Source: Limisphaerales bacterium (lineage in GTDB: Bacteria > Patescibacteriota > Microgenomatia > UBA1400 > PJMF01). Taken from it: a stretch of 64,000 nucleotides of DNA. The translations under genes were made by a program, and so were the position numbers. The DNA lies in the NCBI GenBank assembly GCA_044350895.1, contig JBILGT010000002.1, forward strand, positions 36,554 through 100,553. Reading direction: 5' to 3'. The notes beneath the pieces were generated by a model that made no database searches, had not been told where the DNA came from, and saw only the letters and a list, made by a program, of their open reading frames with translations. Positions 1,003-38,048 of this stretch are shown piece after piece (within the stretch, counting starts at the first letter, position 1; every line of letters starts with the position of its first letter).

Positions 1003-2784
1003 CTACTGTTTGTACTCCACATTAAAAAATGCAAAGCCACTTTGAGGAATTCTCAGATAGCCTGGTGCGCGAAGATTAAATGTTGATTTGAACTCTTCAC
1101 CAGAAATTGCGATTGAGCCACGGTTTGTCTGGAACGTAACAGTCGCTGTTTGCCCATTTCCGCCATGTGAAACACTCACCCCACTAATACTTGTCACCGC
1201 TCCACCCGAGCCATTAGCAAAATTACGGAGTTCTTCTTTAGAATATGGATTGCCACTGCCGCCACCAATATTACACTCATTAATTGTCGTTGGCACAATT
1301 CTTCCAGAGTCAGCTCCGTTTGGATTTTTGCGAACAATCCAGGCATTAATAATGTCAGCCATTTCTTCTTGTGAAAGCCAAGGATGGTTTCGACCACAGT
1401 TGGCACCACTACTAGAATACCCATTGCGGTACCATGATTTATAGAACCACGGACTTTTGGCAATACTTTCCCAGGCTCGGTTAGACCAATCGCCACTTCC
1501 TGATTTGTCTTGAGTATCCCAACCACTCTTTTTGGAATATCCCCCGTGTGTGGAAGCGTACTGGGTTGAAACAGGATTACCACCACCGTCTACGAGCACC
1601 CACCCTTTTGTTTCGTTAACGGCACTTTCCCATGCGCCACCCTTTTTACTATTCTTGAAAACTTGGCAACTTTCTGTTGTACAAATTGTTCGCTGCCCAT
1701 TGTTCGTATATTTAATGGCAAAAGTTCGAGCTGCGATTGCTTGAGCTTTGAGAGCGTTAATATTCCAGCTTCCTGGCATTTCATAAATTCCTTGTAGGTA
1801 TCGATCTTCAAATGAAATTTTTCCAACACCTTGCACATCAATGTCACCCATTTCGCTGTAGTCTTTTTTGATTGTGGCATCAGGATAATATGCTTTCAAA
1901 ATATCTTCCACAGACTGCCCAGCATCAGCACGGGCCTTTGCGCCGTATTGGCTCATACCATTTCGGTGCGTATATGCTCCAAAACTAAAAACTGCAAACG
2001 AATTACTTGGTGCTTGAGATTTGAAAGCAATCGATGCATTAAAATCATCAGCCAGTGGAACTTCTCCGACTGAAGTAATTGAAGTACCGGAACGTGCGGA
2101 AAGAATTGCTTCCTGTTTGGCATTAAGTTCAGCAATTTTGCCCGTTAACTCTTTTTGGTATGCCTTAGCCTTATTAATCTCAGCAGTAAAGAAGTCTGCT
2201 TGAGCATCAAGTTGCTTTTCCAACCCAGCCAAAGTGACTTGCCGTTGCTCCAAAGCCTTTTTATCAGATTCCAGTTTTGAGATATCTTGACCGACAGTAT
2301 TAATGAGGTTCTGGTTCTTCTCACGAAGACTTGAGTGATAGGTCAGACCTTTAGTGAGATCAGCTGCGTCATCGCTGCTAAACACAACGAGGAGCGGTGA
2401 AACAACCCGAAGCTGTTTATACTGGCTACGCACTCTTTCTGAAAGAAGCGTGTAGTACACACCTAGCTCAGTTTCTCGTTTTTCAATGTCTGTGGCGAGC
2501 AAGGCGGCATCTTTTTTGGCCTTTGCAATGCCTGATCTCGCACTAGTAATTCGCGATTCTAGGGTTGTAACTTCTTTCTCAAGCGGTTTTGTAGCATCTT
2601 CAGAAAGTTTTTTTAGGTTTTCTAGGTCCTGAATATCCTTCTCTAACTGCTCGATTTCATCGAGTGCTTGAACTGAAAAATGCATTGATTCAACAAAGTA
2701 TTTACCACATAAAGAAAAGGTGCTAAATATGAAAAAAAGCAACAACACAAAACGGGCAGTACGTGTTCGAAAGCGAGGCATCAA
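1003..2784 (-). CDS. SpoIID/LytB-domain protein with N-terminal membrane anchor and long coiled-coil region
   Basis: C-terminal half carries the SpoIID/LytB signature region '...EMPGSWNINALKAQAIAARTFAIKYT...'. The N-terminus is hydrophobic (MMPRFRTRTARFVLLLFFIFSTF), followed by heptad-like Q/E/K/L-rich sequence. Confidence 0.65.
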   Translation of the reverse strand: MMPRFRTRTARFVLLLFFIFSTFSLCGKYFVESMHFSVQALDEIEQLEKDIQDLENLKKLSEDATKPLEKEVTTLESRITSARSGIAKAKKDAALLATDIEKRETELGVYYTLLSERVRSQYKQLRVVSPLLVVFSSDDAADLTKGLTYHSSLREKNQNLINTVGQDISKLESDKKALEQRQVTLAGLEKQLDAQADFFTAEINKAKAYQKELTGKIAELNAKQEAILSARSGTSITSVGEVPLADDFNASIAFKSQAPSNSFAVFSFGAYTHRNGMSQYGAKARADAGQSVEDILKAYYPDATIKKDYSEMGDIDVQGVGKISFEDRYLQGIYEMPGSWNINALKAQAIAARTFAIKYTNNGQRTICTTESCQVFKNSKKGGAWESAVNETKGWVLVDGGGNPVSTQYASTHGGYSKKSGWDTQDKSGSGDWSNRAWESIAKSPWFYKSWYRNGYSSSGANCGRNHPWLSQEEMADIINAWIVRKNPNGADSGRIVPTTINECNIGGGSGNPYSKEELRNFANGSGGAVTSISGVSVSHGGNGQTATVTFQTNRGSIAISGEEFKSTFNLRAPGYLRIPQSGFAFFNVEYKQ

Positions 2785-2911: not shown

Positions 2912-4207
2912 ATGAAAAGAATACACAAATTTATAGTGAGTGCTAGTCTTTTCTTTGTTTTGATCCTCCAAAGCTTTATACAACCCCACACTGTCCGCGC
3001 AGCTGAGGCATGTCCTGGTACAACTGAAGGTTTTGGTGTTGAGCTACCACCCTATACCACAGACCTAAAACATACCGTTAAATTTGATACAACAAATTGG
3101 AGTAAAGATTACAAATATTTTATTGTGATTCGTTCAAGAGAATATGTTCCAGATATTGGTACTCGCAATGTAGAAGCAGATTCACCAGCATTTAAATTAG
3201 GAGCCGACACGTCTGTTTCAGATAGTGATGGGAAAGTTACTCTCACAGGTTCCCAATTAACATACGAAATAACATCAAGTTGGGCACTGCAAAATCGCAA
3301 TAATTCTTATGATTATCAAGATAAACATTATGTAGAAATCCATCGATACGCAACTGTTGCGATTGGCAACACCTGGAACTACTTCTGTAGCGGAGGAACG
3401 TACACCACTTCACCAGGCATCAAAGGCTGCAAGATTACTGTTTACCAGAATCGCTCTGATCAAGGTGGACAAGCATGTTATCTAGGCGGCAGCAATAGTT
3501 GTATTCAAACAAGTAGCAGTGAACAGGTGAATGTTCGGGTTGATAATTTAAAATACTCTGACGGCAAGGTTGTGGATGGTCTTGAAGTAAGCTTTGTGTT
3601 TGGGCAACCTGGCATGGGGGTAGCACCCGACTCTTTCCAAACAATCAGGAATGGTTCTGCTGCCGGTGCGTTTTACCCAAATGGGAGAGGCACCTTTAGT
3701 ATTCAACTGAGAATGCGTCGCTGGGGCATCAACTATGATATTCCAGGATGTTACAGAGAAATCGAAGTTGAAGAAGTCTGTAATGATAAATGCAACAAAA
3801 CTGAGACAAGTACTGATAGTACTGAGAATCTTGATATAGTTTCTGTTTTTCAAATTTGTTCTCAAATTAGTAACACTGAACTTAAGGCAAAATGTGAGGA
3901 GTGTGCCGGTGGCCCAGATGGTCGTAAGGGTGTTTGGACGGCGGTGGGGTGTATTGAACGCGATCCACAAAATATAGTGCAGCGCTTTATTGAGATTGGG
4001 CTAGGTGTAGGAGGCGGTATCTGCTTACTAATGACACTGGCCGCAGGCTTTATGATTACCACTTCTCAAGGTGATCCGAAACAGTTCAACGAAGCTAAAG
4101 ACATGATTACTTCAGCAATTGTTGGATTATTGTTTATAATTTTCTCAGTGTTCATTTTACAATTTATAGGTGTGACAGTCCTGCAAATTCCAGGATTTGG
4201 AAGCTAA
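2912..4207 (+). CDS. secreted protein with large N-terminal extracellular domain fused to a C-terminal VirB2/TrbC-like pilin-type two-helix domain
   Basis: Signal peptide (MKRIHKFIVSASLFFVLILQSFIQPHTVRA). The C-terminus '...GLGVGGGICLLMTLAAGFMITTSQGDPKQFNEAKDMITSAIVGLLFIIFSVFILQF...' has the same TM1-(G/S)GDxxK...A(K/R)(N/D)-xxxSAIxGL-TM2 architecture as the pilin array at 9.6-14.4 kb. Confidence 0.5.
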   Translation: MKRIHKFIVSASLFFVLILQSFIQPHTVRAAEACPGTTEGFGVELPPYTTDLKHTVKFDTTNWSKDYKYFIVIRSREYVPDIGTRNVEADSPAFKLGADTSVSDSDGKVTLTGSQLTYEITSSWALQNRNNSYDYQDKHYVEIHRYATVAIGNTWNYFCSGGTYTTSPGIKGCKITVYQNRSDQGGQACYLGGSNSCIQTSSSEQVNVRVDNLKYSDGKVVDGLEVSFVFGQPGMGVAPDSFQTIRNGSAAGAFYPNGRGTFSIQLRMRRWGINYDIPGCYREIEVEEVCNDKCNKTETSTDSTENLDIVSVFQICSQISNTELKAKCEECAGGPDGRKGVWTAVGCIERDPQNIVQRFIEIGLGVGGGICLLMTLAAGFMITTSQGDPKQFNEAKDMITSAIVGLLFIIFSVFILQFIGVTVLQIPGFGS

Positions 4208-4217
4208 TCATATATCT

Positions 4218-5534
4218 ATGAACAAATTACGACTCTTTATCTTCACCACACTGATATTTTTGTTTACGTTCTTTATTCAAACTACTACCGTGCATGCTGC
4301 GATAGGTGCTGACTGTGGCAATCATGGAAGATGTGGGGGTACATCAGATGGTTGTGGTGCAAACGAAATTTGTATTGATGCTACCGTCTGGGATACACAA
4401 GGTGGTAAGTGTGAAGCGTCAAACGGACGCTGTGAGAATCGAGATGATTCAAGGAATGAAGTCTGCGGCTATACTGATGGTCTCCTGCATGGCACAGATC
4501 AATGGTGTGGAGCCCGCGGCGGCTGCGCCACAGGATACCTGTGTAATAGCACTTCTAAAAAATGTGAGCTTAATAATGGGGATACTGCTGGAGGCGCCGT
4601 TGGCTCAGCATGTGCAAATATCCAGGAAGTATATGATAGCCAGTGTGGCTACTGGACTTCCAATCAATGTGGCGCAGCTGGCGTTTGTCAGACCGGGTAT
4701 CGCTGCGTTGCTGTGACCTCAATCATTAGCCGAACTGGCTATGCCTGTAGACCAGATCCCACAGATGAACCCAATAAATGTCCAGGGTCTCCTACACAAC
4801 CTGCAGTTGCATTGAGCTGTGGTGAATCTTCTGACAACCCAAATGCAACGTGCAGTTGTTCAGGCACTGGTGCTGGACTTGTTGACTTGGCCTACGGCAA
4901 AAAGTGTTGTGGCTGGAAACTAAATGGTGGAGCTGACTGTGGTGCAACAAGCCCCACTACCCCCCTCCTGTGTGGCCAAACTTCTGCAAATAGTACGGCA
5001 ACCTGTGGTTGTACAGGAGCAACTCTCACTCGGAATACCAATGTCGACGCAACAACAGAACGCAATCAAATGTACTGTTGTGGGTGGATAAACGGCAAAA
5101 GTTGCGGAAGTACCAAACCAGCCACCCCAGTAGATCCAGCAAATCCTGTTGATCCTACAGATCCTGGAACAGGTGGTGCTGATGACACGACAACTTTAGA
5201 TATTTTTGCAGGTCCGAATTCTGAAGACTTTAAACTACTCAATCCTATTGCAAACTTCAGTACTGATGCCGCAGCGCGAGCTTCATTTACCTCTCCTGGT
5301 GGAATTATTTCGCGGGTGCTTCTCTTTGCATTTCCAATTGCAGGATTAATCCTGTTTGTAATGCTAGTCATTGCAGGATTCCAGATTGTAGCTGGGGCAG
5401 CATCAAGTGGCAGTAAATCAATTGATGCTGGTAAACAACGTGCCAGCAATGCACTCCTTGGCTTTGTGCTACTCTTCGTTGCCTACTGGGTAATGCAGAT
5501 TATTGAAACAATTTTTGGAATTACGATTCTCTAA
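4218..5534 (+). CDS. cysteine-rich secreted modular protein, Pro-rich linker, C-terminal VirB2/TrbC-like pilin-type domain
   Basis: Probable start at 4218 (MNKLRLFIFTTLIFLFTFFIQTTTVHA signal peptide) rather than the track start 4197. Repeated CG..G.C..GY.C and C.C.G.G....CCGW modules, a PxDPxNP linker, and C-terminal '...FPIAGLILFVMLVIAGFQIVAGAASSGSKSIDAGKQRASNALLGFVLLFVAYWVMQI...'. Confidence 0.5.
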   Translation: MNKLRLFIFTTLIFLFTFFIQTTTVHAAIGADCGNHGRCGGTSDGCGANEICIDATVWDTQGGKCEASNGRCENRDDSRNEVCGYTDGLLHGTDQWCGARGGCATGYLCNSTSKKCELNNGDTAGGAVGSACANIQEVYDSQCGYWTSNQCGAAGVCQTGYRCVAVTSIISRTGYACRPDPTDEPNKCPGSPTQPAVALSCGESSDNPNATCSCSGTGAGLVDLAYGKKCCGWKLNGGADCGATSPTTPLLCGQTSANSTATCGCTGATLTRNTNVDATTERNQMYCCGWINGKSCGSTKPATPVDPANPVDPTDPGTGGADDTTTLDIFAGPNSEDFKLLNPIANFSTDAAARASFTSPGGIISRVLLFAFPIAGLILFVMLVIAGFQIVAGAASSGSKSIDAGKQRASNALLGFVLLFVAYWVMQIIETIFGITIL

Positions 5535-5559: not shown

Positions 5560-6273
5560 TTACTTGCCGAATCTTCGTTTGCGTGATGCATATTCTTCTA
5601 AAAGTTCGTCAAACTTCTCAGGGGTAAATTCTGGAAAATAAAATTTTGGGAATGCTAACTCAGCATACTCACTTTGCCAAAGCAAAAATCCAGAGCTGCG
5701 GTGCTCACCACTCGTGCGAATAATGAAGTCTGGATCAGGGATACCTACTGTATCAAGTGCTTGTTCAACTTCTTCTTTTGTAATTGGTTTTGTTGTAGTC
5801 GTTACCCCTGACGCTTCGCGTGCTGCAACCAAACTATTTACGGTTCTTAAAAGCTCATCTCTTCCACCGTAGTTCATTGCAAAAATGACGGTGATACCAG
5901 TATTATCTTTGGTCAGATCAATTCCCCGCTGTATTCGTTCCTGGATCTCAGAATCAAATTTAGAGATATCACCAATTGTTTTTACACGGACATTTTTTTC
6001 GTGGAACTTTGGTACAAATACATCAAAAACTTCTTTGAAAAGATCAAGCAAGTATTCAACTTCACGTTTGTCACGCTGCCAATTTTCAGTACTAAAAATC
6101 CAAAATGTTATATAGCGAACACCTCTAGCATGAGCGTGATCAACGAGTGGCTCAAAAACAGCATCTACAGCTCGTCTGTGGCCCAACAAAACCTCCAGTT
6201 TATGCTCTCTCGCCCAACGTCGGTTGCCATCACAAATAATTGCTACATGTTCTGGAAGTGTGTTGTCAGACAT
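5560..6273 (-). CDS. uppS: isoprenyl transferase (undecaprenyl diphosphate synthase)
   Basis: 'HVAIICDGNRRWAREH...' and the rest of the cis-prenyltransferase family signature. 237 aa is the typical length. Confidence 0.9.
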   Translation of the reverse strand: MSDNTLPEHVAIICDGNRRWAREHKLEVLLGHRRAVDAVFEPLVDHAHARGVRYITFWIFSTENWQRDKREVEYLLDLFKEVFDVFVPKFHEKNVRVKTIGDISKFDSEIQERIQRGIDLTKDNTGITVIFAMNYGGRDELLRTVNSLVAAREASGVTTTTKPITKEEVEQALDTVGIPDPDFIIRTSGEHRSSGFLLWQSEYAELAFPKFYFPEFTPEKFDELLEEYASRKRRFGK

Positions 6274-6275
6274 AG

Positions 6276-7079
6276 TTACTTTGTAATTGCAGTTCCTACT
6301 ACAGTATCACCAATAAGAGAGTGAAATAATGCATCTTTTTTTAGGCCTGAGATAATGCCCACCTGCATTCCTGCAGCAGCAAGTTTCATTGATTCTTCAA
6401 TTTTATGTGCCATGCCACCAGTTACATCAAATCCTTTTGTGACTCCAATTAGCTTTTCCACTTCTCTGATATTTTCTTCAGTGATGTGCGGAATTACTGC
6501 GCCAGATGCATCAAGTACACCCGCCACTTCAGTGACATGAATAATTTTCTGAATACTGTATTTATCTGAATCAATAAAGTGCTCAGCAATGTATCCTAGT
6601 ATTTTTTCAGTAGACCAAATTGTACATCCTTTAGTACTATCCACTAATACATCTCCACCTGTAATTGGGACCATGCCTTTTGCCAGATATTCCTCAAGGA
6701 CATCGCCACACCAGTGTTTGGCTTTGTCTGAATCAGTTACCATGGAATTACTGAAGTAAAAACTTACTGCGGGGATTGAGTGTGCCAAGAACTCTTGCAC
6801 CACAATTCGATTGAGTTGTGCAGCACTATCTTGAGTTACCGCCATACCCATTCTACTGTCTTCATTGATGAATCCATCCATTGTCTTGTAACGCAGTGCA
6901 GGTGCATGTGCGAAACTACCTTGACCATGTCCCACAATATACAAACCACCAGTTTGATGTTGGGCACGAACAATTTCAGTCACGAGCTGTTTGAGGACAT
7001 CTGCTCGTACCATCATCGGAACTTCTTTATTTGTGATGATTGAGCCACCGAGTTTGATGAGTGTAAGTTTTTGTTTCAT
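6276..7079 (-). CDS. ipk: isopentenyl phosphate kinase (amino-acid kinase family)
   Basis: N-terminal 'LIKLGGS', internal 'VGHGQGSFAHAP', C-terminal 'DVTGGMAHKIEE', all as in archaeal IPK. 267 aa. 4-bp overlap with uppS. Confidence 0.7.
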   Translation of the reverse strand: MKQKLTLIKLGGSIITNKEVPMMVRADVLKQLVTEIVRAQHQTGGLYIVGHGQGSFAHAPALRYKTMDGFINEDSRMGMAVTQDSAAQLNRIVVQEFLAHSIPAVSFYFSNSMVTDSDKAKHWCGDVLEEYLAKGMVPITGGDVLVDSTKGCTIWSTEKILGYIAEHFIDSDKYSIQKIIHVTEVAGVLDASGAVIPHITEENIREVEKLIGVTKGFDVTGGMAHKIEESMKLAAAGMQVGIISGLKKDALFHSLIGDTVVGTAITK

Positions 7080-7621: not shown

Positions 7622-7622
7622 A

Positions 7623-9014: not shown

Positions 9015-9017
9015 AAA

Positions 9018-9606: not shown

Positions 9607-9966
9607 ATGTTTTTTCTAGTACAAAAAGTATATGCTGCAGGCTGCTCAGATCTAGACTATGGTTCTCCCGAACTTAATTTAGGCAGAGTGCTTTGCTTGA
9701 GCGACAGCACAGCTGTTGAAGATGTCTATAAAGATCCAGCATTTCTTGTCAACTTAATTGTTAGCAATTTATTTGTTTTTGCTGGAATAATAATTTTTCT
9801 TCTTATTTTTTACGCTGGATTTAAATTTATCTCTCAAGGAACTAAGGGCAAAGAGGAAGCAAAAGGGATCATTACTGCCGCTGTGACTGGCTTAGTATTG
9901 ATGTTTGCAGCATATTGGGTCCTCCAGATTGTAAAAACATTAACGGGGACTGACGTTGCACTCTAA
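9607..9966 (+). CDS. VirB2/TrbC-like pilin-type small membrane protein, paralog 1
   Basis: TM1 (LVNLIVSNLFVFAGIIIFLLIFYAGF), loop 'SQGTKGKEEAKG', TM2 (IITAAVTGLVLMFAAYWVLQIV). A TATAAT lies 12 bp upstream. Confidence 0.5.
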   Translation: MFFLVQKVYAAGCSDLDYGSPELNLGRVLCLSDSTAVEDVYKDPAFLVNLIVSNLFVFAGIIIFLLIFYAGFKFISQGTKGKEEAKGIITAAVTGLVLMFAAYWVLQIVKTLTGTDVAL

Positions 9967-9969
9967 ATT

Positions 9970-10419
9970 ATGAAAACAAATATAGTACTCAAAACTATTA
10001 GCTATATCTATCTTTTTGCTGTTATTATCAGTGCATTTTTCTGTATCCCAGGCCTCACCTTCGCACAAACTGCTGAAGACTTAGGGGTTGGAACAATTGC
10101 AGCCCCTCCTGGCGTGGATAAATATAATGCTGCCGCACAAGCGCAAGGTGCCGATATTGCGATCGTTTACTTTATGTCGAACATGATCAAGCTCTTTACG
10201 GTAGTTGCTGGAATCTGGGTAATTTTGAATGGCATTCTTGCAGGCTACTACTTTGTGCAATCAAGTGGAGACGCAGGCACCTATGAAAAAGCCCGTAATC
10301 AAATTACTCAAAGTGCCATTGGTCTTGCAATGATTGTACTTTCATATATGTTTACTGGGCTTGTTGGTTTACTTTTCTTTGGAGATGCGGGTATATTCTT
10401 AAATCCAAGGTTAAAATAG
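9970..10419 (+). CDS. VirB2/TrbC-like pilin-type small membrane protein, paralog 2
   Basis: Signal peptide plus 'VVAGIWVILNGILAGYYFVQSSGDAGTYEKARNQITQSAIGLAMIVLSYMFTGLVGLLFFGDAG'. Confidence 0.55.
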   Translation: MKTNIVLKTISYIYLFAVIISAFFCIPGLTFAQTAEDLGVGTIAAPPGVDKYNAAAQAQGADIAIVYFMSNMIKLFTVVAGIWVILNGILAGYYFVQSSGDAGTYEKARNQITQSAIGLAMIVLSYMFTGLVGLLFFGDAGIFLNPRLK

Positions 10420-10420
10420 T

Positions 10421-10969
10421 ATGAAACAGTTTATACTCAGCATCGTTGTTGCACTCTCAGTGCTATTCTTCGTCCCTACAGTGGCGCAAGCACAATCATG
10501 TCCTAGCAACCGGACTTGTAGTGGCGGTTGTACCGCTGTGGGCCAATGTGTTGGAAACAAACGATGTGTTAGTGTACAAGGCGTTATTTACCCTGGAACA
10601 GTTGATTGTGGTTCTGCCCAACTTGGCGGAGTTAAGCCACCTCCAGCTATTACTAGTTTTAATTTTCAAACTGGCTCTGCATCAGGCAATGGCATCATCC
10701 TCTTTTTATCTAGATTGATCAATCTTTTTGTCATAGTGTGTGGAATCTGGACAATGTTTAACTTTTTATATTCTGGATACATTCTAATTTCTTCTCAGTC
10801 AGATACTAAAAATCAAAGTGAAATAAAAGATAAATTAACAATGACAGCCATTGGCTTGGCTATTATTGCCGGAGCATACATAATCGCTGGACTAATCGGT
10901 CTTATTTTCTTTGGAGATGCGGGATATATTCTCAATCCGCAGCTCGTCAGCGCACTTGATAGAGGGTAA
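10421..10969 (+). CDS. VirB2/TrbC-like pilin-type small membrane protein, paralog 3 (with Cys-rich N-terminal extension)
   Basis: Signal peptide, a CPSNRTCSGGCTAVGQCVGNKRC module, then the shared two-helix domain ending 'IGLIFFGDAGYILNPQL' (same C-terminal tail as paralog 2). Confidence 0.55.
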   Translation: MKQFILSIVVALSVLFFVPTVAQAQSCPSNRTCSGGCTAVGQCVGNKRCVSVQGVIYPGTVDCGSAQLGGVKPPPAITSFNFQTGSASGNGIILFLSRLINLFVIVCGIWTMFNFLYSGYILISSQSDTKNQSEIKDKLTMTAIGLAIIAGAYIIAGLIGLIFFGDAGYILNPQLVSALDRG

Positions 10970-11025
10970 TATGGCTGGAAGATAGACTTTCTTCTGTCAT
11001 ATGGGTATAATTACAGGCGTACATT

Positions 11026-11406
11026 ATGATGATATACATAGCACAAAAACTTACCCAGTTCGGTTCTGGTTTTGCACCAGTTGTTGATACTGCATGGACA
11101 GATGGCTCAGATACAGAAGCAGGGGTACTTACCAATTTAGAAGCATTCATTTCACAAATCTTGGGACTGATTACAGTAATTGGTAGTTTGTTCTTTGTTA
11201 TCAACTTTCTCATGGCTGCCTTGAGCTGGATCACCGCAGCAGGTGACAGCGGCAAAATTCAAAAAGCTCGCGACCAGATGATTCAATCTACGTTGGGACT
11301 TGTTATTATGGTAGGCTCTTATGCAATAATTGGACTTATTGGATCAGTGGTTGGTATCGATATCTTACAACCAGGCCAAGCATTAAAGATGTTGATCCCA
11401 AGGTAA
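11026..11406 (+). CDS. VirB2/TrbC-like pilin-type small membrane protein, paralog 4
   Basis: 'WITAAGDSGKIQKARDQMIQSTLGLVIMVGSYAIIGLIG'. Confidence 0.55.
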   Translation: MMIYIAQKLTQFGSGFAPVVDTAWTDGSDTEAGVLTNLEAFISQILGLITVIGSLFFVINFLMAALSWITAAGDSGKIQKARDQMIQSTLGLVIMVGSYAIIGLIGSVVGIDILQPGQALKMLIPR

Positions 11407-11411
11407 ATTTA

Positions 11412-11840
11412 ATGTCATTAAACAAGTTACAAAAGACCATCTCATCAGTTACAACAACTACAGCACTTTTAGTGAGTAGTTCTACTTTGGCACTCGCTCA
11501 AACAGGCATAACCAATCCAGCAATTGGCATTTATGGTAAAGACCCAAATGCGGCCAAGGCCGGCACTTCATTTGCGGGGTATGTCGCTATCATGTGGAAA
11601 GCTATGATTTCAATTGGAGCATTACTAGTTCTCTTATACTTTGTATGGGGTGCAATCGATTGGATAACAGCCGCTGGAGATAAAGGTAAAATGGAAGGTG
11701 CCCGCAATAAAATGCTCAATGCCTTTATTGGTTTACTGCTATTGGTCAGCTCATACACCATAATTGCATTCGTTGGCTGGCTATTCTTTGGAACTGAATT
11801 CAACATCTTACAACCAATATTTATATTTAATAATCCATAA
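11412..11840 (+). CDS. VirB2/TrbC-like pilin-type small membrane protein, paralog 5
   Basis: Signal peptide plus 'WITAAGDKGKMEGARNKMLNAFIGLLLLVSSY'. Confidence 0.55.
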   Translation: MSLNKLQKTISSVTTTTALLVSSSTLALAQTGITNPAIGIYGKDPNAAKAGTSFAGYVAIMWKAMISIGALLVLLYFVWGAIDWITAAGDKGKMEGARNKMLNAFIGLLLLVSSYTIIAFVGWLFFGTEFNILQPIFIFNNP

Positions 11841-11845
11841 TATTT

Positions 11846-12187
11846 ATGCCAACACCAACAAAAATAGACTTACAAGGAGGCGCAATCCTCGCACAAATTC
11901 CAGGCACTGAGAACATGGAATCGCCAAATGCCGGCTTTGCCCGTCTTATTGGGAATATTCTTGCCGCAGTCATGGTTGTTTCATTACTCCTTGTTCTCTA
12001 CTTTTTAGTAGTTGGTGCAATTGAGTGGATTACGGCAGCTGGCGATAAAGGTAAAATTGATTCAGCACGTAACAAAATGACAAATGCTGTTATCGGCATC
12101 ATAGTTTTATCTTCCGTTACCGCACTATTTGCAGCTGTACAATATTTCTTAGGTGTCAATGTACTTACATTTTCATTTACCCCGTAA
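11846..12187 (+). CDS. VirB2/TrbC-like pilin-type small membrane protein, paralog 6
   Basis: 'WITAAGDKGKIDSARNKMTNAVIGIIVLSS'. Confidence 0.55.
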   Translation: MPTPTKIDLQGGAILAQIPGTENMESPNAGFARLIGNILAAVMVVSLLLVLYFLVVGAIEWITAAGDKGKIDSARNKMTNAVIGIIVLSSVTALFAAVQYFLGVNVLTFSFTP

Positions 12188-12325
12188 GGAGCGATTGATT
12201 CGCATACTTTAGAGTCTGGGTAAATCAAACTGGTACTTGCAAGCACTAAAAGTATATTGCTAAGCTATTACTTGACGGAGAGCATATAATATAATCTAGT
12301 GTAAGATACACTTACAAGGAGCAAG

Positions 12326-12739
12326 ATGATTGGTAAATTAAACACGGCATTAGTAGCCAGTACAGTAACTGGATTTTTAAGTGCACCAATTGCATTTGCA
12401 GTGGAACCTACTTCAGGAGTTACTTCAGCAGTTGGCACAGTCACAGCAGGAACTGGATGGGCAGATAACATCGGTGGTTTAATCACTAGTGTCTTAACTA
12501 TCGTCATGGTTGTTGCTATCCTACTCGTCTTACTCTACCTCATCATGGGTGGTATCGAATGGATCACATCTGGTGGTGATAAAGGTAAAACTGAAGGTGC
12601 TCGTAACAAAATTACCTCAGCTATCATTGGTATCATCATCTTGGCAGCAGCTTATGCGCTCGTCCAACTTGTCGCCTACGTATTAGGATTTGCAAGTCTG
12701 AACGCAGCTCTCGAATCATTACCTAGAATCGGTACGTAA
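12326..12739 (+). CDS. VirB2/TrbC-like pilin-type small membrane protein, paralog 7
   Basis: AAGGAG RBS 8 bp upstream of the ATG and a TATAAT around 12286. Signal peptide plus 'WITSGGDKGKTEGARNKITSAIIGIIILAAAYALVQLVAYVLGFASLNAAL'. Confidence 0.6.
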   Translation: MIGKLNTALVASTVTGFLSAPIAFAVEPTSGVTSAVGTVTAGTGWADNIGGLITSVLTIVMVVAILLVLLYLIMGGIEWITSGGDKGKTEGARNKITSAIIGIIILAAAYALVQLVAYVLGFASLNAALESLPRIGT

Positions 12740-13179
12740 TAACAATAATAATGAATTTAATTAAAAGGAGTTACATGTTAAATAAAATTCAAAAAGCAGC
12801 AGCAGCAACTGCGGGAGTCGCAGCCAGCTTACTAACCACTGCAGTAGCATACGCTAAAGATACCAGTGCTATAGGCACAGTCACACCAGGTACAGGTTGG
12901 GCAGATAACATCGGTGTTTTAATCACCAGTGTCCTCACCATCGTCATGGTTGTTGCTATCTTGCTCGTCTTACTTTACCTCATCATGGGTGGTATCGAAT
13001 GGATCACATCTGGTGGTGACAAAGGTAAAACTGAAGGTGCTCGTAACAAAATTACTTCAGCTATCATCGGTATTATCATCTTGGCCGCATCATATGCACT
13101 CGTCCAACTTGTCGCCTACGTCTTAGGATTTGCAAGTCTTAATGCCGCCCTGCTCTCATTGCCTCAAATCGGTAAGTAA
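12433..13179 (+). repeat. tandem duplication (~300 bp units, ~440 bp period) of pilin-type gene bodies
   Basis: 12461-12739 and 12901-13179 align base-for-base with only scattered substitutions (e.g. gcagataacatcggtg[g/t]tttaatcac...). Confidence 0.8.
12751..13179 (+). CDS. VirB2/TrbC-like pilin-type small membrane protein, paralog 8 (near-identical tandem copy of paralog 7)
   Basis: The probable true start is 12775 (AAAGGAG RBS just upstream; MLNKIQKAAAATAGVAASLLTTAVAYA signal peptide). The mature domain is about 90% identical at DNA level to paralog 7. Confidence 0.6.
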   Translation: MNLIKRSYMLNKIQKAAAATAGVAASLLTTAVAYAKDTSAIGTVTPGTGWADNIGVLITSVLTIVMVVAILLVLLYLIMGGIEWITSGGDKGKTEGARNKITSAIIGIIILAASYALVQLVAYVLGFASLNAALLSLPQIGK

Positions 13180-13202
13180 TATTTTTAAAATTAGAATTTC
13201 AG

Positions 13203-13230
13203 AAACCCCCATCTTGTATGGGGGTTTTTG
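13203..13230 (+). terminator. rho-independent terminator after pilin paralog 8
   Basis: AAACCCCCA-tcttgta-TGGGGGTTT followed by a T-run. Confidence 0.7.
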
Positions 13231-13266
13231 GTATATTAGGTGTGTTTGTTACACATTTGACCCACT

Positions 13267-13821
13267 TTGATGTATAATGTAAGTCTAATGAAAAAAGCCG
13301 TTATATCACTTGTATTAGTACTCATATTTAATTTTTTAGCTGTATTTAGCAATCCCATAGTATTCGCAGCAGACGAGGTAAAATTAGTCAAAGATGGTAG
13401 TACCTACTATCTGAGTACTGAAGGTTCTGCATCCACCACGCGCAGTGGACAAACCTATCGTCTTGTTCCTGTTGAGCAAACCGCCGCAACCAGTGCTGCA
13501 AAAACAGCATCTCGTTCAGCAGTTGTTCCGCCTCCTGGATATGTAGGTAATATTGGAGAGCTTATCAGCTTCTTACTTAAGTTGGTAATGATTGTGGCAA
13601 TTTTACTTATTCTTCTCGCCTTTATCACCGCTGGTTTTGAGTGGATTACATCTGGAGGTGACAAAGGTAAAACTGAAAGTGCCCGAAACCGCATTGTCGC
13701 AGCTTTTGTTGGTGTACTCATCTTATCTGCCGCATACGCATTAACACTACTCGTTGCCTATGTTCTTGGTTTTGATAGTATTGATGATGTTTTTGGCAGC
13801 ATTAAGCGAATTAATCCATAG
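13267..13821 (+). CDS. VirB2/TrbC-like pilin-type small membrane protein, paralog 9
   Basis: Probable start 13288 (MKKAVISLVLVLIFNFLAVFSNPIVFA). 'WITSGGDKGKTESARNRIVAAFVGVLILSAAYALTLLVAYVLGF'. Confidence 0.55.
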   Translation: MMYNVSLMKKAVISLVLVLIFNFLAVFSNPIVFAADEVKLVKDGSTYYLSTEGSASTTRSGQTYRLVPVEQTAATSAAKTASRSAVVPPPGYVGNIGELISFLLKLVMIVAILLILLAFITAGFEWITSGGDKGKTESARNRIVAAFVGVLILSAAYALTLLVAYVLGFDSIDDVFGSIKRINP

Positions 13822-13844
13822 GTCACAAACTCTACATTCACTTC

Positions 13845-14372
13845 TTGCTGTTCTATCAGGTATACTATAGAGATTCAAAATCTATGCGCCGTAACACATT
13901 TACCTATCAAGTAATTTCATTTTTTAGAGCTGCAATCTTCAGTGTCGCACTACTTGCAAACGTCGCTGGCCCAGTCTACGCCCAAACCCAGGCTTGGTCA
14001 GGTGTGTGTGTCGGCCCAGCTCAGATTAATGCAGCAACGAAAGCCAATGATGTTGCTACTATCCAAGGCGTTCAGTGTCTACTTGCCAATGTATTTACTG
14101 TGATCATAACAATCGTCGGTCTGGCAGGATTTGTCATGTTTATTGTAGGTGCCTTTAGATATTTGGTTTCTGGCTCAAATAGCAAGGGTATTGAAGCCGC
14201 CAAAAATACCATTCAATACATGGTGATCGGCATTATTGTAACGCTCAGTGGTTTCATCATTCTGAATATGATTTCTTCATTCACCGGAATCGACGTCATT
14301 ACTCGATTTGTTATTCCAAGTTCAGATCGTGGTACTTCTGCAGATGACTATCCAATTCCAGTTGGAATGTAA
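13845..14372 (+). CDS. VirB2/TrbC-like pilin-type small membrane protein, paralog 10 (divergent)
   Basis: Probable start 13884 (MRRNTF...signal peptide). 'IVGLAGFVMFIVGAFRYLVSGSNSKGIEAAKNTIQYMVIGIIVTLSGFIILNMI'. Confidence 0.45.
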   Translation: MLFYQVYYRDSKSMRRNTFTYQVISFFRAAIFSVALLANVAGPVYAQTQAWSGVCVGPAQINAATKANDVATIQGVQCLLANVFTVIITIVGLAGFVMFIVGAFRYLVSGSNSKGIEAAKNTIQYMVIGIIVTLSGFIILNMISSFTGIDVITRFVIPSSDRGTSADDYPIPVGM

Positions 14373-33493: not shown

Positions 33494-34684
33494 TTGCCCA
33501 TCATGAAAGAACATCCAATACCACAAGATATTACTAGCTATCGCTTTCACATTGTTGGAAGCATGACACTCAAACAATTTGGTGAAGTTGCAGGTGGTGT
33601 TGTTATCTGTTTTATACTCTATCAGACAAATCTTCCCGCAATCATCAAATGGCCACTCATTGCTATCCTTTTTGGAGGCGGACTTGCTGCAGCTTTTGTT
33701 CCTATTGAAGAGCGTCCCTTAAGTCACTGGATTGCAACATTTTTTAGTATTCTCTATAAACCAACACAATTTTTCTGGAAACGTGCCTACAACATTCCTG
33801 CTCCGTTTTTGTTTAAAGGTAATAGTGATAATATGCTGCAAATGCAGGAGCTCGACCTTACTCCTGCGCGACGGCAACGAATTAAAGAATTTATTTCTTC
33901 AACAGGAACAACCGAAACTGTCGGTGAGTTTACTAACGAAGAGCAATCTCGCATGTCCGATATTCTCAATATTTTCCAGACTCAAACAACGATTGGAGTT
34001 CGAGAAGAACATACTGAAGTCATTCATAAACCGAATCTCACTGTTCGAGTACGAAGCATGCGGCAATTTGAAATTCCTAGTGAAGAAGTTGAAAAAGAAC
34101 ATTTTACAGTAAATTCGCTTGATAGTGTAGAAAATTTGGACTCTACAATTGTTTTACAAACTGACGAACCTACAAGTAGCTCATACAAAAAGAACAGCTA
34201 CCTCGAGTCACAACAAGTTGCACAGGGGCTTGAAATTCCCGAAATTCAACCTGTTGATCTTGGCATAAAGAACACTCCAGAAGAAGTATCAGCACTGATT
34301 CAACAACAAAACATCAATCCTACAGAACGTGCATACCTAGAAGACACACAGCCACATTTCAAAATAGAAAGTGCTTCTGAATCTGTTCATTTTAACAATC
34401 AGCTTCCCTTTCCCAGTCAACCAACTGTTGCAAATAAACTGGTCGGTATGGTTCTCACTCCAAATAATGATTTGGTCCCAGGAGCAATTGTAGAGATAAA
34501 AACTGCAAATGGACACGTATCAAGAGCAGTAAAAACTAATGCATTGGGACAGTTTTTCATTACTACACCGCTTAATAATGGCGACTACGTTGTGTCAGTA
34601 GAAAAAGAAGGACAGACATTTAGACCAGTTTCAATTCAATTAGTTGGTAAAATCGTAGAACCTTTGGAAATCCGGAGTAGCTAA
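33494..34684 (+). CDS. two-TM N-terminal domain protein (VirB3/PrgI-like topology) with C-terminal carboxypeptidase-regulatory/transthyretin-like beta-sandwich
   Basis: N-terminal hairpin 'GGVVICFILYQTNLPAIIKWPLIAILFGGGLAAAFV'. C-terminal 'GMVLTPNNDLVPGAIVEIKTANGHVSRAVKTNALGQFFITTPLNNGDYVVSVEKEG' resembles a CarbopepD_reg-like fold. Confidence 0.4.
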   Translation: MPIMKEHPIPQDITSYRFHIVGSMTLKQFGEVAGGVVICFILYQTNLPAIIKWPLIAILFGGGLAAAFVPIEERPLSHWIATFFSILYKPTQFFWKRAYNIPAPFLFKGNSDNMLQMQELDLTPARRQRIKEFISSTGTTETVGEFTNEEQSRMSDILNIFQTQTTIGVREEHTEVIHKPNLTVRVRSMRQFEIPSEEVEKEHFTVNSLDSVENLDSTIVLQTDEPTSSSYKKNSYLESQQVAQGLEIPEIQPVDLGIKNTPEEVSALIQQQNINPTERAYLEDTQPHFKIESASESVHFNNQLPFPSQPTVANKLVGMVLTPNNDLVPGAIVEIKTANGHVSRAVKTNALGQFFITTPLNNGDYVVSVEKEGQTFRPVSIQLVGKIVEPLEIRSS

Positions 34685-35923
34685 TTGCGACAGCTTCCAA
34701 AAGAAGCTACCATTAAAAAGCAACATATGGCAGATATTATTCAATCAACAACACAACAATTCTTGGATATTTACGATATCACCAACAACTTTGTGGTAAT
34801 GAAAGACGGCACTGTATCGACAATATTAACTGTTGATGCAATGAATTTTGGTCTTTTAGCAGAAGAAGAACAAGATGCCATCATGTACGCCTACGCAGGA
34901 CTGCTCAACTCACTCAACTACTCTGTTCAAATCATTATTAACTCTAGAACAAAAGACGTTACGTCATACTTAAAAGTGCTGCAGGAACAGGAAACTACTG
35001 CAGAGACCGAGACACTCCGTCGGCGCATCAGAATGTACCGGGAGTTTGTCGGCAACTTAATTCATGAAAGAAATGTTTTGGATAAAAAGTTCTATGTTGT
35101 CATTCCTGCCGCAGCCGTTGAAATGGGATTTTTAGCTCCAGCAAGTGTGTTACCTGGAAAAACCAATGCGTTTGATATCAGTTCAATTGAGCGTTCTGTC
35201 ATAATTGAAAAAGCTAGAAATCTGCTTGACCCTAAGCGAGACCACCTCATTGCGCAGTTTGCACGTATTGGATTGTTTTCAAGACAGCTTTCAACGCAGG
35301 AAATTATTCAACTGTTCTATGTTCGATACAACCCAGAAGCGGTTGAAGGTCAGCAAATTGGTGAAAGTAGTAGTTATACCACTCCGCTTGTAAAAGCGAG
35401 TATACAGGGAAATTTTATGAATACCCCGACACAAACGGTACCACAACCTCAAGCTATACCTGAGGTGCAAGCTTCGCTTGACCCAGTTGTCACACAATCA
35501 ATGCCAGAGATGAGCATGCAACCAGCACATCTTGAACCAGTTCCAGAAATTCATATTGCTGCTGTTGCTCCTGAAACTGTTGCAGCTCCATTTACACCTA
35601 CAGAACCACCGGCTGCACCAGTCATGCCACCAATGGCAACTATGCCGCAAATGTCTCAACCACCAGCAATTGAGACACCCATTTCTCCAGTAGTTTCACA
35701 ACCACCAGTGGTAAATACACCACCTATGCAAACTATTGAGATTCCAGCTGCAACTCCACCTGTACCAGAGAACACACTAGCCAGCACTGGAAGTCTCCCG
35801 TCCGAAGCTGAAGTACAAGCTGATTTAAATACAACACTACAGTCTCTGGGGACCACACCAGATATAACCAGTGTTCCACCAACCCAACCAGCGGCTGATC
35901 TGCCACCGCTGCCAGAGATTTAA
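34685..35923 (+). CDS. protein with VirB4-N-terminal-like domain followed by Pro/Thr/Gln-rich low-complexity tail
   Basis: 'FLDIYDITNNFVVMKDGTVSTILTVDAMNFGLLAEEEQDAIMYAYAGLLNSLNYSVQIIINS' resembles the CagE/TrbE/VirB4 N-terminal domain. The C-terminal 190 aa are PxxP-rich. Start is adjacent to the stop of the upstream gene. Confidence 0.4.
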   Translation: MRQLPKEATIKKQHMADIIQSTTQQFLDIYDITNNFVVMKDGTVSTILTVDAMNFGLLAEEEQDAIMYAYAGLLNSLNYSVQIIINSRTKDVTSYLKVLQEQETTAETETLRRRIRMYREFVGNLIHERNVLDKKFYVVIPAAAVEMGFLAPASVLPGKTNAFDISSIERSVIIEKARNLLDPKRDHLIAQFARIGLFSRQLSTQEIIQLFYVRYNPEAVEGQQIGESSSYTTPLVKASIQGNFMNTPTQTVPQPQAIPEVQASLDPVVTQSMPEMSMQPAHLEPVPEIHIAAVAPETVAAPFTPTEPPAAPVMPPMATMPQMSQPPAIETPISPVVSQPPVVNTPPMQTIEIPAATPPVPENTLASTGSLPSEAEVQADLNTTLQSLGTTPDITSVPPTQPAADLPPLPEI

Positions 35924-35984
35924 AATGACTTTTTTAATAAAGCCACTTTTACTCTGAGGTAAAATACAAGTACAATAGAAACCA

Positions 35985-38048
35985 ATGCCCAGTTTATCGT
36001 CGTTACTTCCAACGCTTCCGTTTCCATTTGGCCAAAAGAAAAAGCCTGAGAATTCGCCATCACCAGAGGAGCTGCAGGAACAGAAAAACTTGGAAAAGTT
36101 ACAACAGTTTTCTCGAGGCCTAGTTACTATCCAAGATATCATTGCTCCTGAAGCTATTGAGGTTGATTTTACGTATCAGAAAATCAACTCTACCTATACT
36201 AGAACTCTGTTTGTAGCTGGCTATCCCCGAACTGTCCCAGCCAACTGGCTCGCGCCACTCATCAACTACCCACATCAGATTACAACTTCAATGTTTATCT
36301 TTCCGGTAGATTCAGCTGAGATTCTCGATAACCTCAAACGCAAAATCACTGAAATGGAAGCTGAAATTCAATCAGATTTACGTGCAGGTAAGATTTCAAA
36401 CATTAATACCGAAGTTAAACTAGAAGACGCACGATTCATTCGCGAAGAACTAGCAAAAGGTGCGGAGCGGTTTTATCAATTTGGTCTGTATGTCACTATT
36501 CAAGCCAAAGATAAAGAAGAACTCGATAAGATCACTAAAAGCATTCAATCAACACTCGGTTCTCTCTTAATCGTATCCAAGAAAGCTACGCTGCAAATGG
36601 ATGAGGGATTTAAGACAACGTTACCAATGGGAGTTGATAAGTTGCTCGTCACTCGAAATATGGATACCACGTCACTCGCAACAACATTCCCGTTTACTTC
36701 ATCTGAACTTACGATGGAAACAGGCATTATGTACGGCATTAATGAGCATAATGACTCGCTCGTTATCTTTGACCGTTTCAAGATGGAAAACGCCAACATG
36801 GTTATCTTTGCTAAGTCAGGTGCTGGAAAATCTTACACCGTCAAACTAGAGATTTTGCGCCAGCTTATGTTTGGTGCTGAAGTGATTGTTATGGACCCTG
36901 AACATGAGTATGAAGATATGTCTGTAGCCGTAGCTGGAACGTACATTAATTTTACTTTTAATTCTGAAACAAAGATCAACCCTTTTGACCTCGCCAATCT
37001 CTATGAGGAAGGTGAAAATGAACTTGGGCAAAAAATTATTTCATTACATGGTCTTCTCAAAGTTATGTTGGGTGATATGACACCACAACAAGATGCTTTA
37101 CTCGACCGCGCCTTGGTAGCAGCTTATAAAGCTAAAGGCATTACTCCAGATCCAGCAACACAAGTCAACGAACCACCACTCATGGAAGATGTCTATAAAG
37201 CTTTGATTGGTATGGAAAATCGAGATGCTGATGATATTTCAGCCAGACTAGAAAAATTTATCACAGGTTCATTCCGAGGAATTTTCGATCAAAAATCAAA
37301 CATTGATATTAAAAGCCAATTAACGGTCTTTTCAGTTAAAGAAATGGAAGAAGAGATGCGTCCAATTGCGATGTACATCATCTTGGACTTTATCTGGACT
37401 CGTATTCGCAAAGACCTCAAGAAGCGCCTTCTTATTATTGATGAGGCCTGGTACTTTATGAAGCATCCTGATTCAGCTTCATTTATCTACTCAATGGTAA
37501 AGCGTGCTCGTAAATATTACTTGGGTATTACCACCATCACGCAAGATGTTGAAGACTTTTTGCACACAGATTACGGTAAAGCAATTGTGACAAACGCTTC
37601 CATCCAGTTTTTGATGAAGCAGTCTACAGCGTCAATTCCGGTTCTTGCAGAAACGTTCTATCTTTCACAAGGTGAACGACAACTGCTCGTCACAGCAGAT
37701 GTTGGTGAAGGAATTTTCTTTGCAGGGCAAAATCACGTTGCGCTTCGTGTTGTGGCTAGTGAAGAAGAACACACCTTAATTACAACCAACCCTGAAGAAG
37801 TACTACAAAACCGCCGTGTTGCAGAACAAACCAGAATTCAAGCTGCAACTGATTTGGCTGAGAAAAAACCATCATATCCGATGCCACCACGACAGCCTGC
37901 TCAAAGAGAACCAGCTGCACAAGCTGCAATGCCTGCCGTCTTAGTCAAAACAGCTGATACAACTTCTGCTGCTGCGACTGGTCGACCACAGTACATGCCA
38001 GATTCAATTGATAATTACAAACCACCTTCTAAACCAATCAAACAATAG
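35985..38048 (+). CDS. virB4: type IV secretion ATPase VirB4 (Gram-positive TcpF/PrgJ/TraE-like)
   Basis: N-terminal 'IAPEAIEVDFTYQKINSTYTRTLFVAGYPRTVPANWLAPL...SMFIFP', Walker A 'FAKSGAGKSYT', Walker B 'LLIIDEAWYFM'. 687 aa. Confidence 0.8.
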   Translation: MPSLSSLLPTLPFPFGQKKKPENSPSPEELQEQKNLEKLQQFSRGLVTIQDIIAPEAIEVDFTYQKINSTYTRTLFVAGYPRTVPANWLAPLINYPHQITTSMFIFPVDSAEILDNLKRKITEMEAEIQSDLRAGKISNINTEVKLEDARFIREELAKGAERFYQFGLYVTIQAKDKEELDKITKSIQSTLGSLLIVSKKATLQMDEGFKTTLPMGVDKLLVTRNMDTTSLATTFPFTSSELTMETGIMYGINEHNDSLVIFDRFKMENANMVIFAKSGAGKSYTVKLEILRQLMFGAEVIVMDPEHEYEDMSVAVAGTYINFTFNSETKINPFDLANLYEEGENELGQKIISLHGLLKVMLGDMTPQQDALLDRALVAAYKAKGITPDPATQVNEPPLMEDVYKALIGMENRDADDISARLEKFITGSFRGIFDQKSNIDIKSQLTVFSVKEMEEEMRPIAMYIILDFIWTRIRKDLKKRLLIIDEAWYFMKHPDSASFIYSMVKRARKYYLGITTITQDVEDFLHTDYGKAIVTNASIQFLMKQSTASIPVLAETFYLSQGERQLLVTADVGEGIFFAGQNHVALRVVASEEEHTLITTNPEEVLQNRRVAEQTRIQAATDLAEKKPSYPMPPRQPAQREPAAQAAMPAVLVKTADTTSAAATGRPQYMPDSIDNYKPPSKPIKQ

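Follow-up and report, generated by a model that had tools for sequence, protein, structure and literature searches.

Two adjacent genes on the chromosome of an ultrasmall bacterium (Patescibacteria), here called A and B, encode proteins that, judged by their sequences, bear large heads and belong to PF18895, the VirB2-like T4SS pilin family of Patescibacteria, whereas the members described so far are small; head-bearing members are not mentioned in the searchable published descriptions of PF18895 pilin arrays. The window analyzed, a contiguous stretch of 64,000 nucleotides, belongs to a chromosome of Microgenomatia type, in which a monoderm-type T4SS (PrgI/VirB3-like protein and VirB4) adjoins dnaA (Table 1), the published arrangement for Patescibacteria. 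The chances appear about even that A and B are minor or tip-type pilin subunits displaying host-recognition heads, and they are at present the leading candidates for the host-recognising part of this T4SS.

Table 1. Positions of genes A and B, their predicted parts and the related genes within the window.
Feature	Position	Strand	Description
SpoIID-domain protein	1003..2784	-	PcsB-like coiled coil (Pfam); divergent neighbour of A
Gene A	2912..4207	+	431 aa; signal peptide, two predicted Ig-like domains, Cys connector, pilin-family hairpin
A residues 1-30	2912..3001	+	Sec-type signal peptide, V-R-A/A
A residues 31-170	3002..3421	+	distal beta-sandwich D1 (predicted), most variable part; strands 37-166 (AF2)
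A residues 171-292	3422..3787	+	second beta-sandwich D2 (predicted), Big_1/invasin-like
A residues 293-351	3788..3964	+	conserved Cys-stapled connector (F.LC.QI...C..C...GVWTAVGCI)
A residues 352-431	3965..4204	+	two-helix pilin-family hairpin, polar loop SQGDPK, conserved tail IPGFG
Gene B	4218..5534	+	438 aa; signal peptide, Cys-rich modules, linker, pilin-family hairpin
B residues 1-27	4218..4298	+	Sec-type signal peptide, V-H-A/A; hydrophobic, helix 2-19 (AF2)
B residues 33-177	4314..4748	+	three type-1 Cys modules (CG..CG..GGC..GY.C)
B residues 201-296	4818..5105	+	two type-2 Cys modules (C.C...CCGW...C)
B residues 297-330	5106..5207	+	Pro/Asp/Gly-rich flexible linker; pLDDT <50 at 308-324
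B residues 331-438	5208..5531	+	conserved pre-helix segment (IF.GP.S.DF..LNP...SPGGIISR) and hairpin ending ...FGITIL
Pilin array	9607..14372	+	10 small PF18895 genes, 113-184 aa
T4SS core	33494..38048	+	PrgI/VirB3-like (33494-34684), 412-aa protein of unassigned family, VirB4-type ATPase (35985-38048)
dnaA	from 38152		follows the VirB4-type ATPase gene

Both reading frames were found as first described, and public gene calls on the identical 119-kb contig (JGI/NCBI) give proteins of the same lengths (that of B being identical to protein P0121). The start of gene B is most likely ATG 4218 and not TTG 4197, since the former agrees with the public call and the latter would overlap A. No terminator-like site was detected between or after A and B, promoter-like sites around them occurred at chance level, and no tRNA or Rfam feature was found within the window. 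The cleavage sites of the two signal peptides were taken from sequence alone; in A, the hydrophobic segment covers residues 4-25 and a helix is predicted by AF2 at 3-23, with A30 being nearly invariant. The first-pass annotation had proposed N-terminal extracellular regions of about 350 aa for both proteins, and these heads are indeed large, if slightly shorter than stated (mature parts before the hairpin of about 320 aa in A and 330 aa in B). Their predicted extracellular location, also part of that annotation, agrees with the signal peptides and the even numbers of Cys residues. Heads derived from an intracellular enzyme family were considered as well and ruled out for both proteins, as the Pfam search gave no enzyme match for either and the signal peptides and even Cys counts point the same way.

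Structures predicted by AF2 had a mean pLDDT of 87.8 for A and 78.6 for B. The head of A, for which the annotation had suggested structure prediction, was modelled as two Ig-like beta-sandwiches closest to invasin/intimin: in a fold search with the AF2 model, the best structural matches were invasin, InvE, intimin, FdeC and InvD, accompanied by a weak profile match to intimin and by a match to Big_1 (E 0.16) that falls under the Pfam threshold. Ig-like domains are also common as mere spacers. The invasin/intimin adhesins differ from A in their beta-barrel anchor, LysM and C-type-lectin tip domains, none of which was recognized in A by Pfam or in its AF2 model; A is predicted to be anchored by its C-terminal pilin hairpin in a monoderm cell. 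The connector that follows the sandwiches is predicted to form short helices and a beta-hairpin, and contains eight invariant residues (C316, Q318, C328, C331, T343, A344, G346 and C347).

The head of B is of a different kind. All 30 of its Cys residues lie within residues 33-296, and the earlier description of repeated Cys-rich modules followed by a PxDP linker was borne out by three plus two significant repeats (z = 9.4 for the type-2 pair, with 0/300 shuffles as good; z = 6.6, 0/300 shuffles, and z = 4.1, 1/300, for the type-1 copies) and by PVDP occurring twice in the linker, at residues 304 and 310. A relation of these modules to knottin, defensin or EGF-like families, which had been suggested for comparison, found no match in sequence or fold. 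A head-only search with B returned three proteins, a number that, given a word-index limit and fast divergence, says nothing about other contexts.

The assignment to PF18895 comes from the C-terminal parts. PF18895 (T4SS_pilin) matched A with 28.7 bits, above the gathering cut-off of 26.6, and B with 25.6 bits, 1 bit under it; it also matched all 10 array genes in the Pfam search, 116 of 117 A-family members and all 35 B-family members (best E 1.1e-10). HMMs built separately from the modules of the A and B families each found all 10 array pilins and one another (E 1e-4 to 1e-19), and had no match among the six-frame ORFs of the window beyond the 12 module-bearing ones. Together with a common alignment (TM1, G-x-x-[WF]-I-[TS]-S-x-G-D-x-x-K ... 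A-[KR]-x-x-[IM], TM2), these results uphold the initial claim that A and B end in the same two-helix module as the 10-gene array. Chance likeness of the C-termini is ruled out by the same reciprocal searches, in which family HMMs matched exactly the 12 module-bearing ORFs. Helices are predicted by AF2 at residues 352-384 and 389-423 of A and at 360-396 and 400-433 of B, separated by the loops SQGDPKQFNEAKD (A) and SSGSKSIDAGKQR (B); by hydropathy and alignment as well, both proteins have the signal peptide, two hydrophobic helices and short polar, K/R-containing loop of PF18895 pilins, and the T4SS genes and further pilin copies that accompany such pilins are encoded in the same window (the array, PrgI-like protein and VirB4). 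The homologue search with gene A returned 492 homologues, and a relative of A is encoded in 306 species-representative genomes. At E<=1e-30, the A-type module was found in 350 clusters, and it was C-terminal in all of the best 150 of these 350.

Compared with the VirB2-like pilin arrays of Patescibacteria, A and B share the C-terminal PF18895 module and Sec signal peptides, and the setting is also alike (a monoderm-type T4SS near dnaA, tandem divergent pilin genes, abundance in Microgenomatia). The described pilins are small, with genes of 381-417 bp where listed for Southlakia and PF18895 ending at residue 99-180, whereas the heads of A and B alone measure about 320-330 aa, and the two genes form a conserved pair heading the gene set. 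The Southlakia pilin series (SEML1_0014-0019 of Southlakia epibionticum; Wang et al. 2023, PMC10633639) matches both PF18895 and PF04956 (TrbC/VirB2). No match to PF04956 was found for A or B at E<=1, and only one of 117 A-family and two of 35 B-family members matched it weakly (E about 0.002-0.003). A profile of the 12 modules likewise found none of the solved VirB2/TraA pilins by sequence. The hairpin superposes on the archaeal conjugation pilin 8dfu_B with 75 of 84 residues aligned; this hairpin fold is generic. The sequence relation of the module to VirB2/TrbC/TraA pilins is at most marginal; the shared features are a signal peptide, two hydrophobic helices, a short basic loop and the T4SS context. 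VirB2-type pilins known to us are 50-120 aa long and have no globular domain; by contrast, about 75% of A and B is predicted to be an N-terminal extracellular head, and lengths of 431 and 438 aa exceed what is expected of such small proteins.

Association with pilin genes extends to other genomes. In seven related loci (L006, L029, L030, L034, L037, L039 and L080), the A-B pair stands immediately before an array of 8-10 pilin genes, which argues against the possibility that the module is only a membrane anchor or an embedded T4SS channel subunit that never polymerises, with the heads acting at the cell's own envelope or in cell-cell contact (adhesion, wall binding or S-layer). The module is, moreover, conserved far past the needs of a simple anchor, with positions that do not vary in the connector, in the loop and at the very C-terminus, and it is homologous to the ten small pilin-family proteins co-encoded with it. 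Display at the surface without a pilus nevertheless has several points in its favor: monoderm T4SSs are generally without pili, a Patescibacteria pilus is unproven (reviews treat a filament of PF18895 proteins as a possibility only, none having been demonstrated), VirB2 pilins are required even in pilus-less T4SSs according to a review, the fold of the hairpin is generic, and a fibre would have little room for large N-terminal heads. In this window, about 4 kb of opposite-strand housekeeping genes separate the pair from the array and some 30 kb separate it from virB4, both of which speak against a T4SS-pilus reading. On balance, we consider surface display without polymerisation possible but rather unlikely.

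The idea that A and B are minor pilins whose heads recognize the host gains from the way in which these heads vary. The heads proved far more variable than the pilin module across relatives, as their column entropy (2.5-3.2 bits vs 0.6-1.3 bits in the module; for the C-terminal part of B, 0.6-1.2 bits vs 2.0-2.5 bits in its head) and regional identities demonstrate. Relative to its closest orthologue, A is 69% identical in D1, 84% in D2 and 90% in the hairpin, and B is 45% identical in the type-1 modules and 81% in the hairpin. Compared with the closest orthologue (locus L002), dN was 0.20-0.41 in the heads vs 0.07-0.13 in the hairpins, dS being saturated (>2 or undefined). Among 80 A orthologues, D1 is absent or replaced in 29; both domains occur in 51 and D2 alone in 5-6, and the heads of 23 are beyond the reach of the A-head HMM, some of them being Cys-repeat heads. 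The length of B-type proteins varies between 82 and 543 aa, and 26 of 86 B-type heads contain the CCG[WYF] motif. An A-type protein, that of locus L073, also carries the type-2 module of B (z 12.8). Head modules are swapped between A and B scaffolds and between lineages. Only A and B have large heads: none of 139 ordinary array pilins had at least 150 residues before the module.

Such wholesale head replacement and the size range of B-type proteins fit poorly with a fixed structural role, in which A and B would be assembly initiators but not adhesins, namely a cap or nucleus for polymerisation of the small pilins and a VirB5-like platform, with heads that are structural (passage through wall or S-layer) and vary by drift or by evasion of phages or predators. 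The invasin/intimin-like folds predicted for A also point to binding. This explanation draws on the one-to-one retention of the pair, the constant connector and pre-helix motifs, the good conservation of D2 and the connector of A, and the absence of VirB5 from the reported Patescibacteria T4SS components; we judge it improbable. Less probable still is an envelope or cell-wall function with the divergent SpoIID-like peptidoglycan enzyme, unrelated to the T4SS, since the module is homologous to a T4SS pilin family, the pair lies directly beside the array in several genomes and transcription is divergent, and since the adjacency of the SpoIID-like gene with its PcsB-like coiled coil (next to A in 79 of 83 related loci, with the order SpoIID-like(-), A, B-type kept in 78-79) is unspecific and was down-weighted as a functional link, given that gene order is kept across the whole region (DNA ligase, Fic, carbohydrate kinase, RecN/SMC-like, SpoIID, A, B, uppS).

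For the preferred reading, as minor or tip-type subunits with host-recognition heads, we infer the membrane topology, filament incorporation, tip position and binding of A and B as follows. Both proteins would be exported by Sec and lose their signal peptides, so that the disulfide-rich heads remain outside the cell while the C-terminal hairpin is embedded in the membrane, its short K/R-containing loop facing the cytoplasm, as in VirB2/TraA-type pilins. The hairpins may then be taken up by the T4SS along with the ten small array pilins. A and B would be minor subunits, since a tightly wound helical fibre probably could not accommodate an N-terminal head of about 300 aa on each of its subunits. 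They would probably be incorporated first and so come to lie at the far end of the filament or channel, where the Cys modules of B and the membrane-distal domain of A could contact the surface of the host cell on which the epibiont depends, and swapping of head modules would change target specificity.

A and B may in this way take the place of the VirB5 proteins or separate adhesins of other T4SSs. According to a review, VirB5/TrwJ/TraC is a minor subunit at the pilus tip that both nucleates the pilus and touches the target. Reviews that list the T4SS components of Patescibacteria do not include VirB5, which would leave the tip role vacant there. The likeness to VirB5/TrwJ/TraC is one of proposed role only, a functional analogy: neither A nor B matched the VirB5/TraC helical-bundle family in sequence or fold, and VirB5, unlike A and B, is not a pilin-module fusion. 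In the Trw T4SS of Bartonella, which is alike in its tandem variable pilin genes, thought to provide variable surface structures for binding specific hosts, and in having no coupling protein, it is the small pilins and the separate VirB5 copies that vary, and not heads fused to the pilin. Minor pilins with large added domains are also known from type IV pili (T4P), such as CofB, TcpB and GspK-type proteins. They follow a similar logic, in which a pilin module with a bulky domain that fits only the fibre tip initiates assembly or binds; the machinery differs, the fold is unrelated, and in T4P pilins a class III signal peptide goes together with an N-terminal hydrophobic helix and a C-terminal extra domain. 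A and B do not belong to them, having Sec-type signals and a C-terminal pilin-like module in place of the class III signal and N-terminal alpha-1 helix (G/FxxxE).

In Southlakia, the sole Patescibacteria species tested genetically, the T4SS and the pilin series are essential, and in enrichments of Patescibacteria the genes for PF18895 pilins rank with those of highest expression; the role of this T4SS and the way in which hosts are found are nonetheless called completely unknown in the literature, and a survey of Patescibacteria T4SSs detected no adhesin (Quinonero-Coronel et al. 2025, PMC12102498). The A-B pair offers concrete candidates for the host-contact part of an essential T4SS that lacks a detected adhesin, and it bears on whether the monoderm T4SS builds a filament and on what sets the host range of uncultivated epibionts. 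A bolder proposal, which we advance tentatively and with less than even confidence, is that A and B supply the host-recognition element so far missing from the essential T4SS of Patescibacteria, nucleating and capping a monoderm filament, with exchangeable Ig-like or Cys-knotted heads deciding the host; if true, the VirB2 family would gain a pilin-fused tip adhesin of a kind not described in it before. A role as head-bearing pilin subunits would add multi-domain subunits to the VirB2 pilin family, and the head modules could mark host specificity for its prediction from metagenomes.

Two adjacent genes on this stretch of a Patescibacteria (CPR) chromosome, referred to as A and B, each encode an N-terminal hydrophobic helix that closes with a signal-peptidase motif of the -3/-1 type (A, VRA↓A; B, VHA↓A), a large head and two long hydrophobic helices at the C-terminal end. 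For gene B, the ATG is the better start, as it agrees with the public call and the overlap with A disappears. In the same segment, dnaA and dnaN adjoin monoderm-type T4SS genes, with genes close by for a number of very large proteins that are secreted or membrane-bound. A 589-aa protein could be a candidate divergent VirB6, a component described in the literature as scarce in Microgenomatia. Patescibacteria VirB2-like pilin arrays comprise 2-11 genes, are abundant in Microgenomatia and often lie close to dnaA (PMC12102498), and the pilin series of Southlakia epibionticum is essential (PMC10633639).

Coordinates of genes A and B and of the surrounding features in the window
Feature	Position	Strand	Description
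SpoIID-domain protein	1003-2784	-	N-terminal TM segment, PcsB-like coiled coil
Gene A	2912-4207		431 aa
Gene B	start TTG 4197 or ATG 4218		445 aa from TTG; 438 aa from ATG (public gene call)
ECF-type sigma-70	9018-9602	-	divergent from and adjacent to first array pilin (9607)
Pilin array	9607-14372		ten small genes, each matching Pfam PF18895 "T4SS_pilin"
Third array pilin (p3)	10421-10969		182 aa
Adjacent array pilin pair	12326-12739, 12751-13179		94% identity across C-terminal 100 aa
Secreted protein	14460-18686		1408 aa, directly 3' of array, without Pfam match
Membrane protein candidate	19657-21426		589 aa, ~7-8 hydrophobic segments
M23 peptidase-domain protein	27606-32447		1613 aa, domain at its end
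PrgI/VirB3-like gene	33494-34684		
VirB4-type ATPase	35985-38048		
dnaA	38152-39675		

The first-pass annotation had proposed that A and B end in the same module as the array pilins, and this similarity proved to be real. PF18895 scored 28.7 bits in A and 25.6 bits in B (cut-off 26.6) and was matched by 116 of 117 A relatives and 35/35 B relatives; moreover, one HMM from the C-terminal regions of the A family and another from those of the B family recovered all ten array pilins plus B or A, respectively (E 1e-4 to 1e-19), with no further match among the six-frame ORFs of the window. Judged by sequence, A can be assigned to PF18895 through its module and B by family evidence. The module of the first array gene (9607) was the most B-like of the array (E 9.5e-19). 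Extreme C-termini were fixed within each group: IPGFG[GSE] in the A family (P427, F429 and G430 invariant; 4190-4204 in A), exactly ...FGI.IL in the B family (5517-5531 in B), and G-x-[DT]-[IV]-L-x-P, C-terminal to helix 2, common to the array pilins. Such ends may serve as a signal for processing or packing; C-terminal processing is known for RP4 TrbC and for VirB2.

Within the array, p3 stands midway between plain pilins and large-head proteins, having a small Cys-rich N-terminal head (e.g., CPSNRTCSGGCTAVGQCVGNKRC; its stop-to-stop ORF has seven Cys, one of them in the TM helix). The adjacent pair seems to stem from a recent tandem duplication; within arrays, pilin identity has been published as 54% at most (PMC12102498). 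The ECF-type sigma-70 gene holds its position beside the first array pilin in many related loci and may thus be a dedicated regulator of the array.

An AlphaFold2 model of A (117 sequences, mean pLDDT 87.8) contained a signal helix, two beta-sandwich domains (D1, about 31-170; D2, 171-292), a small connector of short helices and a beta-hairpin (293-351; C316, Q318, C328, C331, T343, A344, G346 and C347 invariant), a helical hairpin (352-384/389-423) and the nearly invariant tail IPGFG. All 30 cysteines of B lie within residues 33-296, where both previously claimed module types exist as repeats significant against shuffles: type-1 (CG..CG..GGC..GY.C, three copies; z 6.6, 0/300 shuffles, and z 4.1, 1/300) and type-2 (C.C...CCGW...C, copies at 201-241 and 252-296; z 9.4, 0/300). 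The two types are unrelated to one another. The PxDP linker, disordered in the AlphaFold model, was recovered with two PVDP motifs (304, 310).

The heads were more variable than the module, with column entropies of 2.5-3.2 bits for the A head and 2.0-2.5 for the B head versus 0.6-1.3 for the hairpins. Identity to the closest orthologues (locus L002) was 69% for D1, 84% for D2, 83% for the connector and 90% for the hairpin of A, and 45%, 58% and 81% for the type-1 modules, type-2 modules and hairpin of B. dN in the heads was 3-4 times the hairpin value, which permits no inference on selection because dS was saturated. Among 80 A orthologues, 51 had D1 and D2, 5-6 had D2 alone, and 23 were unmatched by the A-head HMM, among them lone sandwiches and Cys-repeat heads of several kinds. 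B-type proteins ranged from 82 to 543 aa (median ~190), which makes the large head of B a lineage-specific expansion. The type-2 motif CCG[WYF] occurred in 26/86 B-type heads, and the type-2 module sits on an A-type scaffold in locus L073 (z 12.8, 0/500). At least 150 residues preceded the module in 78/83 A-type and 23/86 B-type proteins and in none of 139 ordinary array pilins. The overall pattern is one of exchangeable, predicted-extracellular modules on a fixed scaffold.

Relatives of A gave 492 matches in an index of 5.8-billion proteins and were encoded in 306 species-representative genomes; some are labelled "pilin" or "hypothetical", nothing more. The connector and hairpin alone retrieved 350 clusters (50% identity, E<=1e-30), and in the best 150 of these the A-type module was at the extreme C-terminus in every case, most proteins being 380-470 aa. 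Across 83 loci analysed by own HMMs, the order SpoIID-like (-), A (+), B-type (+) was kept in 78-79, followed by uppS in 43, and in seven (L006, L029, L030, L034, L037, L039 and L080) an 8-10-gene pilin array lay directly 3' of the pair. By this synteny, the pilin gene set has A and B as its conserved first two members; here, an opposite-strand block from uppS to the sigma factor (5560-9602) separates them from the array. A 119-kb JGI/NCBI metagenome contig carried the same gene B and gene order, and related loci bore the taxon labels Pacebacteria, Woesebacteria, Microgenomates or Paceibacterota. Many GenBank records with this Patescibacteria-type locus (L005-L084) are titled 'uncultured Pseudomonadales', L027 'Methylococcaceae' and L075 (CP011212.1, complete genome) 'candidate division TM6', titles that look inconsistent with locus content.

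No solved pilin was matched by sequence, and classical VirB2/TrbC (PF04956) gave only marginal matches to a few A/B relatives, which does not establish membership in that family. VirB5 and type IV pilus pilins showed no similarity to A or B, their likeness being a functional analogy. Membership of A in the invasin/intimin family was rejected, since only the Ig-like fold is shared, whereas the barrel and lectin domain are absent and the Big_1 score is sub-threshold.

After signal peptide removal, VirB2/TraA pilins have both termini outward and a basic loop toward the cytoplasm, a topology that would place both heads outside the cell. The pilus grows at its base, so the earliest subunits end up at the tip; tip and nucleus are normally made of VirB5, which sits on VirB6. 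A tight fibre is unlikely to accommodate an N-terminal head of 300 aa on all its subunits; component lists published for Patescibacteria T4SS do not include VirB5, and no adhesin was found in the published survey (PMC12102498). These points favour, at roughly even odds, a reading of A and B as minor subunits, probably distal ones, that would present host-binding heads. Surface display without a fibre, the hairpin being a membrane or channel subunit, is a tentative second reading, and a mainly structural role as nucleator or cap seems rather unlikely. The SpoIID-domain gene, divergent from and adjacent to A in 79/83 loci, could encode a candidate peptidoglycan-cutting partner apparently absent from these T4SSs (VirB1 is rare in Patescibacteria T4SS; PMC12102498), but gene order is conserved across the entire region, which weakens a functional link and makes an envelope function tied to this neighbour very improbable.

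The initial observation was thus confirmed, and its interpretation as host-recognition or tip subunits partly supported. The PF18895 family and arrays of small pilins in Patescibacteria were already known; the open-access papers covered by the search portray the array members as small pilins, with no mention of any that bear heads. Relative to these, the new variant is a pair of VirB2-like pilin-family proteins that is widespread and conserved, each protein having several domains and an exchangeable head of adhesin-like character.
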